A stretch of DNA of 64,000 bases. It comes from Bdellovibrionales bacterium. Lineage in GTDB: Bacteria; Bdellovibrionota; Bdellovibrionia; Bdellovibrionales; JAUICD01. The position numbers and the translations under genes were made by a program. The stretch's first letter is position 1. Each line of letters begins with the position of its first letter. The stretch spans positions 2,432,001 to 2,496,000 of the forward strand of contig OZ241865.1 of assembly GCA_965203275.1 (NCBI GenBank). The letters run 5' to 3'. Positions 6,655 through 59,460 of this stretch are shown piece after piece. The notes beneath the pieces are model-generated. The model was not told the DNA's origin. It saw nothing but the letters and a program-made list of their open reading frames with translations, and did no database searches.

Positions 6655-9126
<2,472 letters not shown>

Positions 9127-9376
9127 AAATACCTTCAGATATCTTAAAAACTCTAATAGCCTCATATCAAAATAAGGATTTTTAAAAATAAAGTCAAGTG
9201 ATTTCAATATGTTATAAGAATAATGGACTGCGAAAATTTTGCCGTTGTATTTTTATCTTGCTTTGATATAAAAAATATGTAAGTATATAAGTGTTATATG
9301 TTTTGTATCAAAATAGCTATCATGTTATGAATATAAAATGTGTTAAACTATTTCACAGTAAATAAGGAGGTCTCAA

Positions 9377-9652
9377 ATGGATATGGATCAAGTATTAAAA
9401 GAAATGAGAGACATCAATAAAAAAGTCACTCAAAGTTTAGAAAACCAAAAAGAAATTCAAAAAAACCAGGCAGAGTTTAAGAAAGACCAAGCAGAGTTTA
9501 AAAAAGACCAAGTAGAGTTTAAGAAAAAACAAGACGAGATGGAAGCAAGGCTTGCAAATCAAGAAGAAACGACCAAGCACACAAATAAATTGGTATTAGC
9601 TATAAAAAAAAACTGGATTATACAAACCCTGATGGGTCAAAAGGCCGGCTAA
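9377..9652 (+). CDS. Coiled-coil repeat protein copy 1 (91 aa; -1 frame extension to 9723 gives 115 aa)
   Basis: TAAGGAGG RBS; three xxxQ(A/V)EF heptads; A9 run at 9604-9612. Confidence 0.8.
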   Translation: MDMDQVLKEMRDINKKVTQSLENQKEIQKNQAEFKKDQAEFKKDQVEFKKKQDEMEARLANQEETTKHTNKLVLAIKKNWIIQTLMGQKAG

Positions 9653-9746
9653 GCAATTTTATTTTTCAATTAATTCAGTGGCTTTTAAGACTTTTTATAG
9701 CAATAGGATTTAACCATAAATAAACTAACTTTTAAGGAGGTCTCAA

Positions 9747-10040
9747 ATGGATGATCAATTATTAAAAGAAATGAGAGACATCAGTAAAAAAGTCACTCAA
9801 AGTTTAGAAAACCAAAAAGAAATTCAAAAAAACCAGGTGGAATTTAAGGAAAACCAGGCGGAGTTTAAGAAAAACCAGGTGGAGTTAAAAGAAAGCCAGG
9901 CAGAGTTTAAGAAAAAACAAGACGAGATGGAATCAAGGCTTGCAGATCAAGAAGAAACGACCAAGCACACAAATAAATTGGTATTGGCTATAAAAAAAAA
10001 CTGGATTATACAAACCCTGATGGGTCAAAAGGCCGGCTAA
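9747..10040 (+). CDS. Coiled-coil repeat protein copy 2 (97 aa; extension to 10111 gives 121 aa)
   Basis: TAAGGAGG RBS; four heptads; A9 run. Confidence 0.8.
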   Translation: MDDQLLKEMRDISKKVTQSLENQKEIQKNQVEFKENQAEFKKNQVELKESQAEFKKKQDEMESRLADQEETTKHTNKLVLAIKKNWIIQTLMGQKAG

Positions 10041-10134
10041 GCAATTTTATTTTTCAATTAATTCAGTGGCTTTTAAGACTTTTTATAGCAATAGGATTTA
10101 ACCATAAATAGACTAACTTTTAAGGAGGCTTCAA

Positions 10135-10386
10135 ATGGATGATCAATTATTAAAAGAAATGAGAGACATCAATAAAAAAGTCACTCAGAGTTTAGAAAAT
10201 CAAAAAGAAATTCAAAAAAACCAGGCGGAGTTTAAAAAAGACCAAGTAGAATTTAAGAAAAAACAAGACGAGATGGAAGCAAGGCTTGCAGATCAAGAAG
10301 AAACGACCAAGCACACAAATAAATTGGTATTGGCTATAAAAAAAAACTGGATTATACAAACCCTGATGGGTCAAAAGGCCGGCTAA
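10135..10386 (+). CDS. Coiled-coil repeat protein copy 3 (83 aa; extension to 10457 gives 107 aa)
   Basis: TAAGGAGG RBS; two heptads; A9 run. Confidence 0.8.
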   Translation: MDDQLLKEMRDINKKVTQSLENQKEIQKNQAEFKKDQVEFKKKQDEMEARLADQEETTKHTNKLVLAIKKNWIIQTLMGQKAG

Positions 10387-10480
10387 GCAATTTTATTTTT
10401 CAATTAATTCAGTGGCTTTTAAGACTTTTTATAGCAATAGGATTTAACCATAAATAGACTAACTTTTAAGGAGGCTTCAA

Positions 10481-10711
10481 ATGGATGATCAATTATTAAA
10501 AGAAATGAGAGACATCAATAAAAAAGTCACTCAGAGTCTGGAAAATCAAAAAGAAATTCAAAAAAACCAGGTGGAATTTAAGAAAAAGCAAGACGAGATG
10601 GAATCAAGGCTTGCAGATCAAGAAGAAACGACCAAGCACACAAATAAATTGGTATTGGCTATAAAAAAAAACTGGATTATACAAACCCTGATGGGTCAAA
10701 AGGCCGGCTAA
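10481..10711 (+). CDS. Coiled-coil repeat protein copy 4 (76 aa; extension to 10782 gives 100 aa)
   Basis: TAAGGAGG RBS; one heptad; A9 run. Confidence 0.8.
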   Translation: MDDQLLKEMRDINKKVTQSLENQKEIQKNQVEFKKKQDEMESRLADQEETTKHTNKLVLAIKKNWIIQTLMGQKAG

Positions 10712-10841
10712 GCAATTTTATTTTTCAATTAATTCAGTGGCTTTTAAGACTTTTTATAGCAATAGGATTTAACCATAAATAAAATAAGGCATTTTGAATA
10801 AAAAAGCATGTCGCCGGCAAACAAATTATAATATTCCATCA

Positions 10842-12821
10842 TTAAATGTCATCTAAGTAAACCCAATATATGATTTGCCTGAATATATAATCACGTATTT
10901 TAGCTGTAGAAGCTGCTTGTAAATGACCATCTTTATCACGTGTCATAGCTCTTTGTGTTCCATCAGGTTGTTCTATCATTCGATAAGGCATACCATACAA
11001 ATTAATAGCAGAATCTATAAAATAAGTAAGAGTATCTTGATCTACATTATGTAGATAAGCTGAAAAACTCTTAATGATAGATGCCATCTGTGCTAAAGGC
11101 ATACCAACTACAAACCCTGAAGTAAACAACTTTACTCTATTTCTAAGAGATAAAGAAGATAAATGTTTACCATTAAAGAAAGATTTAATGAAGTGATATA
11201 AACCAATCAGATCATCTTGAGAAGATCCTACAAGAAGGCCTCTTAATAACATAAGAGTTATCTCTGGATTGTGTGTTTCTTGATTGATCATGAAAAAAGC
11301 ATCGATGAGTGTCTTTTCAGAAATATGCGGAGACATCTCAGCCATCATAAAAAGAATACCAGCATAATCATAACCACGATAGATCAGAGTATTAAAGAGA
11401 TCCCATCGTGTCCTCCAATATATATCTTGTAATTCAATAAAAACTTGACCTTGTATAAAGTTCTCCTTTTCTATCAAAGAATCAAAAATATCATCTGGAT
11501 GCCCTTCTGTAGGAGAGGAATCTAATAAACTGTCTTGGTCTGTTTGATCTTTGATCATCCTAATTAAATAAACATTTTGGAAGCTCCTCATGTAATTAAA
11601 TTTTACTTTTGTGTTTCTTCTTTTTGCTTTTTGATAAACGGAACTAGCTTTATTTAAAATACTATGAAATCTTTCTGATAAAGGGATGTTAAGATTTTGT
11701 TTGTAGGAATCTTTTTGCTGATCAGGAGGTTTTAAGCTCTCTATTTTATTCAATAAACCAGATATAACAAGCACCCTACGTAAAAAAGTTCCATAGAGAG
11801 AATGATGAAATAGTTCTTTAAAATCTTTTGATAAATCCATGAGCTGTTCCTCATTTAAACCAGTGAATTTAGTTAAAACGAATTTATGATATTGAGATTT
11901 AGATTTATTTTTGTCTTTGAATGGATGGTCTAGAAATATGGGGGTTTTTTGCTTTAGTGAGGGTATTATAGATGTGATTCTCATAAGGAAAGCTGTTAAT
12001 TGTATTGAACGTTTTAATACAGAGGCTTGTTGTGAAGGATCTGAATCTTGAGAATGATTTACTTTAGCATATCCCGATTTAAATTTCATCGTGTGTATAA
12101 ACCACTGTGAAATATCTATGTATGAAAAATTCTTCTCTATTTCTTTTAATAAGGATCGAGGTGTGGGCGACCGCACAGTAAGGGAGCTGTCATCTTGATT
12201 CATTGTTTTAACAATGTCATATAATATTATATTTTCTTCTCTGGATTTCTCTAATAAAGTAGGATTGACATGGTTTAAAGACCAGTCCAAATGATTTATC
12301 TTTTGTTCAAACCATTTGATGAGAATACCTGTTTTGGTAGGGCTGTCAACATAGCTAAGTACTTGGCCATACGGGGTATCCTGAACAAAATAAATGACAA
12401 ATGAGAGACGATTTATAGAGTGAATATAAAAAACTGTCTTTTGGTTGTTTTTGATTTGGATCACACGAGAGCTACTGTTTAGAAAATTAAATTTAGATCT
12501 ATCTATTCTGTCTATCCCATAAAAGATCAAATTATATTTTTGAGGGTCATTGTACATATCATATACCAACTCAGAAACAGTTAAAAATTTTATATCTTCC
12601 CAGTGAAAACTCCCCCATATTTGTTTTAGAGCTGAAATTAAATGATTGGTATTTGTATAAGGTAGTTGAATCTTATGAGAAGGTTGAGAGTATACTTCTT
12701 GAAATTGCATTAAAGCTTCATGACATGTTATACGTTTTTGATTTTTTTGATCTCCATAAGTTATGGTATGAAAATATATTATAAATAAACACAAAGTAAG
12801 AAAAAAAGATTTTATATGCAT
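10842..12821 (-). CDS. Hypothetical secreted protein (659 aa)
   Basis: Long ORF with signal-peptide-like N-terminus; no motif recognised. Confidence 0.75.
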   Translation of the reverse strand: MHIKSFFLTLCLFIIYFHTITYGDQKNQKRITCHEALMQFQEVYSQPSHKIQLPYTNTNHLISALKQIWGSFHWEDIKFLTVSELVYDMYNDPQKYNLIFYGIDRIDRSKFNFLNSSSRVIQIKNNQKTVFYIHSINRLSFVIYFVQDTPYGQVLSYVDSPTKTGILIKWFEQKINHLDWSLNHVNPTLLEKSREENIILYDIVKTMNQDDSSLTVRSPTPRSLLKEIEKNFSYIDISQWFIHTMKFKSGYAKVNHSQDSDPSQQASVLKRSIQLTAFLMRITSIIPSLKQKTPIFLDHPFKDKNKSKSQYHKFVLTKFTGLNEEQLMDLSKDFKELFHHSLYGTFLRRVLVISGLLNKIESLKPPDQQKDSYKQNLNIPLSERFHSILNKASSVYQKAKRRNTKVKFNYMRSFQNVYLIRMIKDQTDQDSLLDSSPTEGHPDDIFDSLIEKENFIQGQVFIELQDIYWRTRWDLFNTLIYRGYDYAGILFMMAEMSPHISEKTLIDAFFMINQETHNPEITLMLLRGLLVGSSQDDLIGLYHFIKSFFNGKHLSSLSLRNRVKLFTSGFVVGMPLAQMASIIKSFSAYLHNVDQDTLTYFIDSAINLYGMPYRMIEQPDGTQRAMTRDKDGHLQAASTAKIRDYIFRQIIYWVYLDDI

Positions 12822-40954: not shown

Positions 40955-43036
40955 ATGCAAGTGTCCCCCCATCAAAACTCTAATACTAATACAAAGATTC
41001 AAAACCCTTTTTTAAAAAAGTTTGAAGGATTTGATGCAGCTATTCCTTTTGAAAAAATCCAAACAGAACACTATCAACCTGCACTAAAAGAAGCCATTAA
41101 AATAGCTAGCTTAAATATTTCAAAAATAAAAGAGGCTTCAACACCTCCTACATTTCAAAATACCATTGAAGCTTTAGAAACCTCTACAGAAGATATGCAA
41201 GCTGTTTGTAGTGTTTTCTTTAATCTTTTAAACTCAGATATGAGCGATCAGCTACAAGCTTTAGCTCCTCAAATATCTACCCTTAAAGCATCCTTTCAAA
41301 GTGATGTCTTGTTAGACGAAAAACTTTTTCATAAAGTAGAAAAGGTTTATAAAGAATCACTTCAGCAACTAGATACAGAACAAAAACGCCTTACAGAAAA
41401 TACTTATAAAAGTTTCGTACGTAATGGAGCTTTACTCTCTCCTGATCACAAAAAAAAAATCCGTGAAATAGATCAAAAACTGGCTACACTATTCCCACAA
41501 TTTTCAGAAAGAAACCTCAAAGCCATGGAGGCTTTTGAACTCCATATCAAAGATCAAAACATTGTGAAAGGCTTACCTAACTCTACTATTTACTCAGCTT
41601 TGGAAAAAGCAAAACAAAAAAAAGTGTCTGGTTATCTTTTTGGACTAGAGATGCCTAGTTATATTCCTTTTATGACTTACTGCACTCATCGTAATCTGCG
41701 AGAGAAAATGTGGAGGGCCTATAGCAGTCGATGTGTAGGAGGTCCATTTGATACTTCGGATATTATCAATCAAATTGTACAGCTTAAATATAAAAGGGCA
41801 AAACTTCTTGGATACCAAAATCATGCAGACTATGTATTAGAAGAGCGTATGGCTAAGTCTGTTGATCAAGTCAATGCCTTTCTTCAACAACTCATTGATG
41901 CAAGTTTTCCTGTTGCCCAAAAGGACCTAGAACGTCTTAAAAAATTATTTTTAAAGGATCACCCTGGTCAAAATATTAAAGCTTGGGATATTTTATATTA
42001 TCAAGAGAAATTAAAAGCTCAACAATTTGCCTTCCATCAAGAAGAACTAAGGCCTTATTTTCCACTTGATCAAGTATTGCAAGGGGCCTTTGACTTAGCA
42101 GGTCGGCTTTACAATTTAGATTTTAAAAAAAGAAACGACATTTCTAAATACCATCCCGAAGTAGAAGTTTACGAAGTTATAGAGAAAACAACAAGAGAAT
42201 ATAAAGCTTTGTTTTATACAGATTTTTTCCCTCGTTCTACAAAGAGAACAGGAGCATGGATGACCACCTTTAGAGAACAGGGATTGCACCAAGGCCAAGT
42301 GAAAAGACCTCACGTCAGTATTGTATGTAATTTCACAAGACCTACAGCAGATCAGCCATCTTTGCTAACCTTTGAAGAAAGTGAAACTCTTTTCCATGAG
42401 TTTGGACATGCTTTGCATGCCATATTATCTGATTGTCGATATGTCAGCCTAGCTAGTCCAAATGTGTACTGGGATTTTGTGGAACTACCTTCACAATTTA
42501 TGCAAAATTGGTTGATGGAAAAACCCGTCTTAGATGCTTTTGCTCAACATTATCAAAATAAACAATCTATCCCAGAAGATTTATTTCAAAAAATAAAAGC
42601 CAGTCGTCAATATATGGCAGGGTACCGTAGTCTACGGCAAATTAATTTTGCCATATTGGATATGGCTTGGCATGCTCAAAACCCTGGATATGTTAAGGAT
42701 ATTGAAGCGTTTGAGAGAAAGTACACACAAAAAACAACTCTCTTACCACCTGAGGCAGGCACAAGTATTTCACACGCATTTGCACATATCTTTGGTGGAG
42801 GTTATTCCGCAGGATATTATTCTTACAAATGGGCAGAAGTCTTAGATGCAGATGCTTTTGAGCATTTCAAGTCCAATGGTTTATTTAATAAAGATATTGC
42901 AAACTCCTTTTGCAATAATATCTTAGCAAAAGGTGATACAGAAGACCCTATGATACTTTATGAAAGATTCAGAGGTCAAAAACCTAACATCCAAGCTCTT
43001 CTTAGGCGAGATGGGTTAATTAGCTCATCTGCCTAA
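40955..43036 (+). CDS. M3 family metallopeptidase (peptidyl-dipeptidase Dcp/oligopeptidase A-like)
   Basis: HEFGHALH, DFVELPSQ, GYSAGYYSYKWAEVL; AAGGAG RBS before ATG 40955. Confidence 0.95.
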   Translation: MQVSPHQNSNTNTKIQNPFLKKFEGFDAAIPFEKIQTEHYQPALKEAIKIASLNISKIKEASTPPTFQNTIEALETSTEDMQAVCSVFFNLLNSDMSDQLQALAPQISTLKASFQSDVLLDEKLFHKVEKVYKESLQQLDTEQKRLTENTYKSFVRNGALLSPDHKKKIREIDQKLATLFPQFSERNLKAMEAFELHIKDQNIVKGLPNSTIYSALEKAKQKKVSGYLFGLEMPSYIPFMTYCTHRNLREKMWRAYSSRCVGGPFDTSDIINQIVQLKYKRAKLLGYQNHADYVLEERMAKSVDQVNAFLQQLIDASFPVAQKDLERLKKLFLKDHPGQNIKAWDILYYQEKLKAQQFAFHQEELRPYFPLDQVLQGAFDLAGRLYNLDFKKRNDISKYHPEVEVYEVIEKTTREYKALFYTDFFPRSTKRTGAWMTTFREQGLHQGQVKRPHVSIVCNFTRPTADQPSLLTFEESETLFHEFGHALHAILSDCRYVSLASPNVYWDFVELPSQFMQNWLMEKPVLDAFAQHYQNKQSIPEDLFQKIKASRQYMAGYRSLRQINFAILDMAWHAQNPGYVKDIEAFERKYTQKTTLLPPEAGTSISHAFAHIFGGGYSAGYYSYKWAEVLDADAFEHFKSNGLFNKDIANSFCNNILAKGDTEDPMILYERFRGQKPNIQALLRRDGLISSSA

Positions 43037-51325: not shown

Positions 51326-52560
51326 TTTCACTAAAAGTAAACCAGCCTCTGGCTGTTTTTGGGCAATCAGCCCGACGGCTCTCGCCGTCGATCAAAGGCT
51401 GATTGCCTCAAAAATCCGTTTACTTTTAGTAAGGAGGATCCTCTCGTCTCTTTACACGATGTTAGGGAAAAAGAGTTCTTTCTGATGCCGGATTGCCCGA
51501 TCCCGGATCCCAGATCCCGGATTGTTTCACTAAAAATAAACCAGCCTCTGGCTGTTTTTGGGCAATCAGCCCGACGGCTACCGCCGTCGATCAAAGGCTG
51601 GCTATCTCAAAAGTCCGTTTACTTTTAGTAGGGAGGATCTCCTCTTTTCTTAACACCATGTTAAGGAAACAAGCTATTTATTGCATTTTCTTTCGCCATT
51701 GACAAAATAGTCATTGCCTCATTTGATTTTCACTCAAAGTAAACTGACCTCTGGTCACTTTTGGATAGCCAGCCCGACGGCTACCGCCGTCGATCAAAGG
51801 CTGGCTATCTCAAAAGTCCGTTTACTTTTAGTAGGGGAGGATCCTCTCGTCTCTTGACAACATGTTAAGGAAACAAGATGTTTATTCACTTTCTTTCGCC
51901 ATTGACAAAATAGTCATTGCCTCATTTGATTTTCACTCAAAGTGAACTGACCTCTGGCTACTTTTGGGCAATGACCGCAAAGGCTTTCGCCTTTGACAAA
52001 ATAGTCATTGCCTCAAAAGCCTGTTCACTTTTAGTAGGAAGGATCCATTCCTCTTTTAACACGATGTTAAGGAAACAAGATGTTCGTCGCTTTTTGTTTT
52101 TTTATTTTTCTTAGATTCTGCGTAACTTTCAAAAAAAATGAAGAATATTATGAGTGGGAGGCGGGGGCAGGCTGAAGATCTTCCGCAGACCCGCTTGCTC
52201 TCCAAGAGCAAGCGAAGGTTGAGGACTTCGGAAGCCTGACCCCGCATTCCACTCATACATAAATAAGATAAAAAAGCAGAATCGAAGGGCGGGGGGTGGG
52301 GTTAGGGATAATTCTTTTGTTTCCCTAAAATTGAACTGACCTCTGGTCACTTTCTGGCGATGACCACTAGTTTGTCTCACTAAAAGTAAACCAACCTCTG
52401 GTTGCTTTTGGACATTGCTCTGACAGCTATCGCTGTCTAAAAAGAGCAATGCCTCAAAAATCTATGCATTTTGAGTAGGGGAGGATCTCCTCGTCTCTTA
52501 ACTACATGTTAAGGAAAAAGATTTCCTTCTGATGCCGGTTTGCCGGATCCCGGATCCCAG
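51326..52560. repeat. Large mosaic cluster of structured repeats
   Basis: At least five family-1 units, a family-2 unit (52114-52283, reverse) and GGATCC modules. Confidence 0.93.
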
Positions 52561-58754: not shown

Positions 58755-59460
58755 TTTCACTAAAAGTGGTCTAGCCTCTGGCTACTTTCTGTTTGCCAGC
58801 CGAAGGCTATTCGCCTTCTCAAATGCTGGCAACCTAGAAAGATTGACCACTTTTAGTAGGAAGGATCCTTTCCTCTTTTGACACGATGTTAAGGAAACAA
58901 AATGCCTTTAAAATTATATTAAAAGAGCAATGCCTCAAAAGTCCGTTTACTTTTAGTAGGAAGGATCCTCTCGTTTTTTAACATGATGTTAAGGGTTTGT
59001 TTCACTCAAAATGCATCATGCCTCTGGCATGTTTTCTGGCAGTTAGCCCGACGACTGTCGTCGTCGATCAAAGGCTTAGTTGTTTCACTAAAAGTAAACT
59101 AGCCTCTGGCTACTTTTGGGTTGCCAGCCGAAGGCTTCCGCCTTCTTAAATGCTGGCTACCTCAAAAGTCCGTTTACTTTTAGTAGGAAGGATCCTTTCC
59201 TCTTTTGACACGATGTTAAGGGTTTGTTTCACTCAAAATGCATCATGCCTCTGGCATGTTTTCTGGCAGTTAGCCCGACGACTGTCGTCGTCGATCAAAG
59301 GCTTAGTTGTTTCACTAAAAGTAAACTAGCCTCTGGCTACTTTCTGGTTGCCAGCCGAAGGCTATCGCCTTCTCAAATGCTGGCAACCTAGAAAGCTTGA
59401 CCACTTTTAGTAAGGAGGATCCCATCGTCTTCTTACACAATGTTAAGGAAACAAGATGTT
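58755..59460. repeat. Structured repeat cluster with internal ~227-bp tandem duplication
   Basis: Family-1 units; blocks starting ~58988 and ~59215 are near identical. Confidence 0.92.

Follow-up and report, generated by a model that had tools for sequence, protein, structure and literature searches.

Few cases of useful recoding are known in cellular bacterial genes. Those most similar to the genes described here are dnaX of T. thermophilus and tssM1 of C. rodentium, which share a sense run of at least nine A's near a stop and yield a short and a long product with a common N-terminus (PMC1088944; PMC4256274). Slippage in dnaX is driven by nine A's, a length that the same source gives as the usual selection threshold (PMC1088944), while for tssM1 both TssM forms, made at an A11, are reported to be required, as is their ratio (PMC4256274). 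For both genes the functional C-terminal domain is described as the ancestral full-length part, known from orthologues. As to run length, the relevant sections report no detectable slippage of E. coli RNA polymerase on runs of fewer than eight A's (PMC6260861), 40% frameshifting from a nine-A cassette in E. coli (PMC3711429) and little ribosome sliding in vitro on A9-A10 (PMC4363877). There is also precedent for a single gene providing soluble and membrane isoforms, and the account in PMC5009743 includes Ebola GP editing, the arterivirus -2 frameshift, which gives access to an alternative transmembrane region, and E. coli copA. According to this account the first two are viral and the shifted product of copA is the short soluble one, unlike the case considered here, in which a cellular coiled coil would gain an anchor on shifting. 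Among open-access papers we found no shift by which a structural coiled coil acquires a membrane-binding tail, nor any report of slippage in Bdellovibrio relatives.

The window (the whole stretch of 64,000 nt that was analysed) lies within a single contig of 2.57 Mb with 35% G+C, from an uncultured relative of Bdellovibrio. For its GyrB, the top full-length matches among the best 80 loci are Bdellovibrionaceae/Bdellovibrio records with 62-63% identity. Located 3' of gyrB (6691..9126, plus strand) are four tandem coiled-coil ORFs on the same strand, of 91 (9377..9652), 97 (9747..10040), 83 (10135..10386) and 76 aa (10481..10711), that differ in length mainly by 21-nt heptad-coding repeats (9461..9533 in copy 1, and also 9828-9916 and 10206-10267). 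Copy 4 is predicted to fold as a single uninterrupted helix from residue 2 to residue 75 (mean pLDDT 92.8). A Shine-Dalgarno-like AAGGAGG can be read from the sequence at 9364..9370 (copy 1), 9734-9740, 10122-10128 and 10468-10474, and the array was found to contain no terminator, no plus-strand promoter and no CRISPR repeat handle. Placed 13 codons 5' of each stop is a run of nine A's (9604..9612, 9992..10000, 10338..10346 and 10663..10671), read in copy 1 as Ile-Lys-Lys-Asn. From there the -1 frame, devoid of ATG in copy 1, runs for 37 codons that give the same product in 4/4 copies (9610..9723, 9998..10111, 10344..10457 and 10669..10782, all on the plus strand), bringing the long forms to 115, 121, 107 and 100 aa, with an amphipathic helix at ca. 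9649-9702 in copy 1 and ca. 10037-10090 in copy 2. The +1 frame reaches a stop after 6 aa. A preliminary description of this DNA had noted the runs and proposed that slippage on them adds a hydrophobic anchor to all four proteins; our re-reading of the four copies confirmed its A9 runs, frames, lengths and coordinates, and the -1 stops are TAA, TAG, TAG and TAA as it claimed, with ends at 9723, 10111, 10457 and 10782.

The most trivial explanation would be an under-call, the true run being A10 or A7 and each gene a single ordinary tail-anchored ORF. The assembly is a single contig, probably derived from long reads, which would favour such an error. However, in Logan contigs from 4/4 runs examined, belonging to 3 studies, an A9 was bridged with 0 gaps and no indel was listed at a 5% threshold (these contigs drop rare variants, and one of the four runs may be the source sample), so that the run length, for which the preliminary description had recommended recourse to reads, is very probably A9 and not A10 or A7. 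Besides, 20 A/T10 runs (and 185 A/T9 runs) are called genome-wide, among them the A10 at 41450 previously invoked against systematic under-calling, which is indeed in frame, inside a 712-aa Peptidase_M3 gene, and the frame under purifying selection after the run is the 0 frame (see below). An assembly error is thus very unlikely, and we give the single-ORF reading hardly any weight. Another possibility, that replication slippage in the DNA toggles individual copies from a soluble A9 to an anchored A10 state and back, draws on the mutability of A-runs stated in PMC3711429 and on the single-base homopolymer indels that distinguish the leaders of two paralogues described below, but no indel variant was listed for contigs of the 4/4 runs at the 5% threshold, rare variants being dropped from them, and the protein-collection matches of 53-170 aa are short forms in 4/4 cases, P0003 being the same short form as copy 1. 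We consider phase variation improbable. A further record (P0006) represents copy 1 in an allele of 84 aa. The contigs of runs X6 and X7 suggest, by their shapes and depths, fewer array copies (about two in X6), depth being a poor measure of copy number.

The finding of the same A9 and tail in all four copies had been presented as support for their use. The identity stands, but the copies, being recent duplicates identical over A9 and tail, provide one observation and the four tails count once. The proposal of eight products is overstated, since a single tail is common to four bodies whose main difference is their number of heptads. Among the copies there were 0 variable sites in the 119 nt of A9 plus tail and 9 in the 155 nt of non-repeat body (Fisher p 0.006, rising to 0.047 when the synonymous stop site is included), a comparison weakened by gene conversion, which makes sites among copies non-independent. 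The uniformity of the A9 and tail would still be some evidence of constraint. It had also been noted that homology ends at the -1 stop of copy 4. The coincidence is there, but an 8-nt microhomology (10782..10789) with the copy 1 leader (9360-9367), likely the edge of the duplicated unit, can explain the end as well, so that it need not reflect the -1 stop.

More independent information comes from two dispersed paralogues in the same genome, L001 (134 aa) and L002 (190 aa). The A9-C is kept in both, so that all 6 genes of the family have the A9, while other codons for identical residues differ from the window at 9/25 (L001) and 14/27 (L002) positions; by hand arithmetic, the chance of retaining the three needed A9 codons is ca. 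0.11-0.26. In the 42-nt overlap of the two frames, 8/10 differences (L002) and 7/11 (L001) relative to the window fall at third positions of the 0 frame, whose stop is kept, and just 3/10 and 3/11 are synonymous if the same overlap is read in the -1 frame. This pattern of differences, together with the kept stop, shows that the short 0-frame form, with its C-terminal end, is the selected product, the overlap evolving as 0-frame coding only.

Such a pattern is also what would be found if these genes made soluble coiled coils only, with A9 as a frequent spelling of Ile-Lys-Lys-Asn in an AT-rich genome, the tail being T-rich 3' DNA that recent duplication brought to four copies and gene conversion kept uniform, and any slipped product unselected noise. 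The 0-frame selection with a stop kept in both paralogues fits this incidental origin, and so do the spelling of 5/25 IKKN peptides in long ORFs with A9, the microhomology at the array edge and the likeness, by eye, of the 0-frame end to the short amphipathic caps seen in anchored families (see below). On the other hand, it does not account for the retention of A9-C, nor for tail DNA that varies less from copy to copy than the coding body does. We regard it as a serious alternative, only a little less likely than the explanation that we prefer (below). For the DNA behind the stop, L001 is the only independent paralogue comparison (n=1).

The -1 frame of L001 has no stop over 41 codons and encodes a hydrophobic stretch (KD 2.3). 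The tails of the window and L001 align without gaps over ca. 56 nt, with 27 differences and no net indel, and 3' of the 0-frame stop the -1 frame is the sole one of six that is open in both. Each tail contains an 18-residue amphipathic helix, with moments of 0.50 (window) and 0.48 (L001) that differ in phase by -3 degrees. In permutations preserving composition or substitution type the in-phase moment gave p 0.000-0.057 on three scales and in both directions, and a weak result on a fourth scale (p 0.011-0.36), whereas 6/160 values were below 0.05 in the five other frames; this test was picked post hoc, after the pattern had been seen and after four other tests. These features, that the -1 frame alone is open in both lineages and that its helix is amphipathic in phase, speak for a tail in use and against an incidental one, as does a genuine A9 retained in L001 and L002. 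The classical signs of coding were, however, absent, in favour of the incidental origin: no third-position bias was seen in the -1 frame after the stop in the window-paralogue comparisons (7/6/6; 14/11/12), and the BLOSUM score of the tail between window and L001 was not above the null (p 0.13-0.36). The chance of a frame remaining open with KD of at least 1.6 was 7-36% in composition-fixed permutations and ca. 2% under uniform AT-biased change. Among 1128 genes with free downstream DNA, the -1 frame was equally long and hydrophobic in 7 (and the +1 frame in 6), with the threshold set at the observed value, and 20/1128 foreign 3' regions gave an open hydrophobic -1 frame, a frequency that again suits the incidental origin.

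L002 tells another story. A repeat element of ca. 150 nt directly behind its 0-frame stop removes the helix and leaves the ORF intact, a further point for the incidental origin, and the interrupted form is also present in Logan contigs of runs X3 and X6. The tail, whose conservation in homologues the preliminary description had made a test of its proposal, is open and amphipathic in phase in L001, and lost in L002. Beyond the inserted element the remaining L002 sequence carries an ATG, in place of the ATT of the window and L001, and is then open for 24 codons, which raises the alternative that the region is a separate gene for a membrane peptide of 20-24 residues, started after the 0-frame stop at the near-cognate ATT by translational coupling, the A9 being irrelevant. 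It would explain why conservation begins only past the 0-frame stop, with the linker in the -1 frame unconstrained, and why the window and L001 have their ATT at matching codons. However, ATT start codons are rare, no well-spaced Shine-Dalgarno can be read in the window, L001 or L002, and the kept A9-C would be left unexplained, so that we think a separate peptide unlikely.

We next consider the site itself. In the window the A9 contains two heptamers of the X_XXY_YYZ type in register, A_AAA_AAA and A_AAA_AAC, and the latter is the motif of IS1-type -1 ribosomal frameshifting, to which the preliminary description had assigned it. The heptamer in register is indeed the point of likeness, but no stimulator was found: simple folding revealed no 3' structure (z +0.71 and +0.46), a 4-bp hairpin 12 nt after the A9 had to be discarded as its folding was no better than that of shuffles, no SD-like sequence was seen by eye 5' of the run, and the stop is 13 codons off and not adjacent. 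Different from IS1-type frameshifting, then, the window site has no transposase, no 3' structure (z +0.46) and a distant stop. PMC5009743 confirms frameshifting in IS1 and, for E. coli, places A_AAA_AAC far below A_AAA_AAG in strength. Slippage of RNA polymerase is for this lack of a ribosomal stimulator the favoured mechanism. Sense A-runs are depleted in the ORFs of this genome (A9: 78 versus 128 expected; A10 and longer: 13 versus 86 expected), for which replication slippage could also be the cause. Given the reports of slippage on A9 and this depletion from A9 upwards, and yet with 91 in-frame sense runs of at least nine A's remaining in 1550 ordinary ORFs, some slipped product is likely at the window A9.

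A screen of all 99 sense runs of at least nine A's in the 1847 ORFs of the genome provided an internal control. A PEGA-domain lipoprotein gene (Pfam; C1:2087028, minus strand) has A9-C directly before its stop and an 83-codon -1 frame (L122:544-1229 = G000:C1:2086343-2087028, minus strand). Matches to this -1 frame were found in 8 of 384 genomes of the order, including the window genome (G000) and covering four families; the other loci are L139-L145 (in G185, G205, G235, G236, G119, G085 and G284). At 8/8 loci an upstream PEGA-type ORF has, in its -1 frame, a conserved domain of ca. 75-85 aa, and in no case are the two fused. An in-register heptamer stands directly before the stop at seven of them (A_AAA_AAC once, G_GGA_AAG three times, G_GGA_AAC twice and A_AAA_AAA once), and at the eighth there is A_AAG one codon earlier, while 11/1847 ORFs of the window genome end in such a stop-adjacent heptamer. 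Here third-position bias is present in the -1 frame (11/5/14; 14/8/27), and no start codon precedes its conserved part in the 6 loci checked. In the window genome a 3' hairpin of -22.6 kcal/mol follows the site (z -5.0); at the other sites the folds range from -6 to -23, most of them being less stable. These PEGA-lipoprotein genes, judged by comparative sequence data, likely undergo programmed -1 ribosomal frameshifting, a candidate new case that is firmer than the window finding and directly testable, with a -1 frame conserved at 8/8 loci behind a changing but always shifty site. We found no paper on it among open-access papers. For the array the PEGA site has a double significance. It lends plausibility to -1 decoding at A9-C in this organism, and such apparent use of the same motif elsewhere in the genome goes against an incidental A9; but it also shows what a clear site looks like, and the window site shares with it the run only.

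The explanation that we prefer, at a little short of even chances, is that the -1 tail is used in a minor, slippage-made membrane form; support for it from L001 and from the separate A9-C site in the genome is modest. The strengths that we attach to this and the other readings are judgements and not computed posteriors. The main product is the soluble 0-frame protein, as the substitution pattern shows. At A9-C a minority of transcripts would gain an A, or ribosomes would slip by -1, and the shift would swap the last 13 residues for a 37-residue tail made of a loose basic linker and the 18-residue amphipathic helix. This helix might bind to, or insert into, the inner membrane, and the long form could tether bundles in which the soluble form is present as well, perhaps achieving the membrane attachment that most similar proteins of this genome encode in frame. 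If true, this would be a compact means of determining in what ratio the subunits of a fibre are tethered or free, by a type of isoform that gene callers overlook. The window genes may then work like the known two-product slippage genes, of which they would be candidate members, with the difference from dnaX and tssM1 that here the 0-frame end is the conserved one and the slipped 37-aa tail has no known relative. A broader proposition, that the family keeps a selected soluble C-terminus while an A9-C slip adds the amphipathic tail at a set ratio (four variants, free and tethered), in a lineage that also uses stop-adjacent X_XXA_AAN frameshifting to provide an optional PEGA-lipoprotein domain, is one we entertain as possible, though rather less than probable.

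How good an anchor the tail would be can be judged from other coiled coils of the same genome. Its helix is hydrophobic (KD 1.6, versus a maximum of 0.55 in the 0 frame), which bears out part of the proposed hydrophobic anchor, but it is amphipathic, is not a clean transmembrane segment and is weaker than the anchors of other heptad-rich ORFs (55-451 aa), 39/57 of which have a hydrophobic segment with KD 1.8-3.1, mostly N-terminal. Unlike those 39, the window family has no anchor in frame. A reading in which the tail belongs to the following copy, as its displaced N-terminal anchor, was rejected, the frame being wrong and the tail occurring also after copy 4 and in the single-gene L001.

Borrelia Bdr and SNARE mimics are topology comparators for a coiled coil with a hydrophobic C-terminal end, and the preliminary description had compared the long forms to both as well as to DUF1640 proteins (PF07798), the CCDC90-like family, described in PMC4786415. 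The window long form would resemble all of these in joining a coiled coil of variable repeat number to a hydrophobic C-terminus, and differs in that the window family has no N-terminal head and its amphipathic tail is weaker than true anchors. By sequence the window family does not belong to PF07798, to which neither copies 1 and 2 nor the tail, L001 and L002 gave any match at E<=1, and the in-frame C-terminal transmembrane helix that is a feature of PF07798 is not found in the window family. For Bdr and SNARE mimics the likeness is one of topology only, neither being among the Pfam matches at E<=1, and no Pfam match for the window family was above cut-off. The genome does have one true PF07798 gene elsewhere, among its heptad-rich ORFs (score 46.7 versus a cut-off of 33.5). 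Foldseek gave no match to the single-helix model of copy 4, and in a protein atlas the body matched generic coiled coils, below the recognition level, while the tail had no match.

The genome contains a second tandem array (L107:539-3675, minus strand = G000:C1:209.3-212.5 kb) of 9 N-anchored coiled coils of 83-123 aa, with genes that differ in heptad number and spacers of ca. 29-31 nt. It resembles the window array in consisting of small coiled coils in tandem, variable in heptad number and with a short amphipathic C-cap, and differs in that its proteins have an in-frame N-terminal hydrophobic segment and the motif NH(I/L)P(T/S)QI, both missing in the window family. Genome-wide there are ca. 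35 small membrane-anchored heptad-repeat proteins, most with NH(I/L)P(T/S)QI after the N-terminal hydrophobic segment. They have just weak matches, in 2/4 genomes of the family, and the two that were tested gave no Pfam family above cut-off. The window family profile did not match them.

Homologues of the array itself appear confined to the species, so that the search suggested by the preliminary description yielded the two paralogues within the genome but nothing beyond the species in the collections covered. No homologue outside the species was found in 40 relatives (one weak coiled-coil match), by profile in 300 genomes of the order (0/300), in G001-G004 by DNA, profile and pattern, in metagenome, genome and viral contig collections, or in the protein collection at near and longer lengths. 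Among 1.84 billion 50% representatives 3 proteins matched at E<=0.001, two of them repeat look-alikes and none an outside homologue. The fused long form was sought with body-containing queries, the tail alone being too short for a large protein search. We take the array to have arisen by recent tandem duplication of one small gene for a heptad-repeat coiled coil, in an expansion specific to the species. A loose-end contig match from the read-contig survey was absent from this genome and was discarded.

Some other features of the surroundings deserve mention. A motif of ca. 20 nt (AAGTATA..TA..AGTGTTAT type), recognised by eye, is shared by the window at 9285-9300 and the leaders of L001 and L002, and may represent a regulatory site common to these and copy 1. 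Converging on the array there is a 659-aa ORF (10842-12821, minus strand) with no Pfam match at E<=1. An abundant palindromic intergenic repeat element of ca. 150-230 nt is found in the window (51525-52084 and 58933-59448), at L001:3320-3700 and at L002:2400-2800, one of its copies being the interruption of the L002 tail; one 17-nt end motif has 105 exact matches, and there are >900 overlapping BLAST hits. Finally, in the same-genus genome G001 unrelated genes are found behind gyrB, and the 3' end of gyrB is duplicated ca. 3.3 kb downstream (78% identity), flanking unrelated genes (L016, L020; G001:C1:2283436-2290031), an arrangement by which gyrB in G001 appears to be an integration hot spot.
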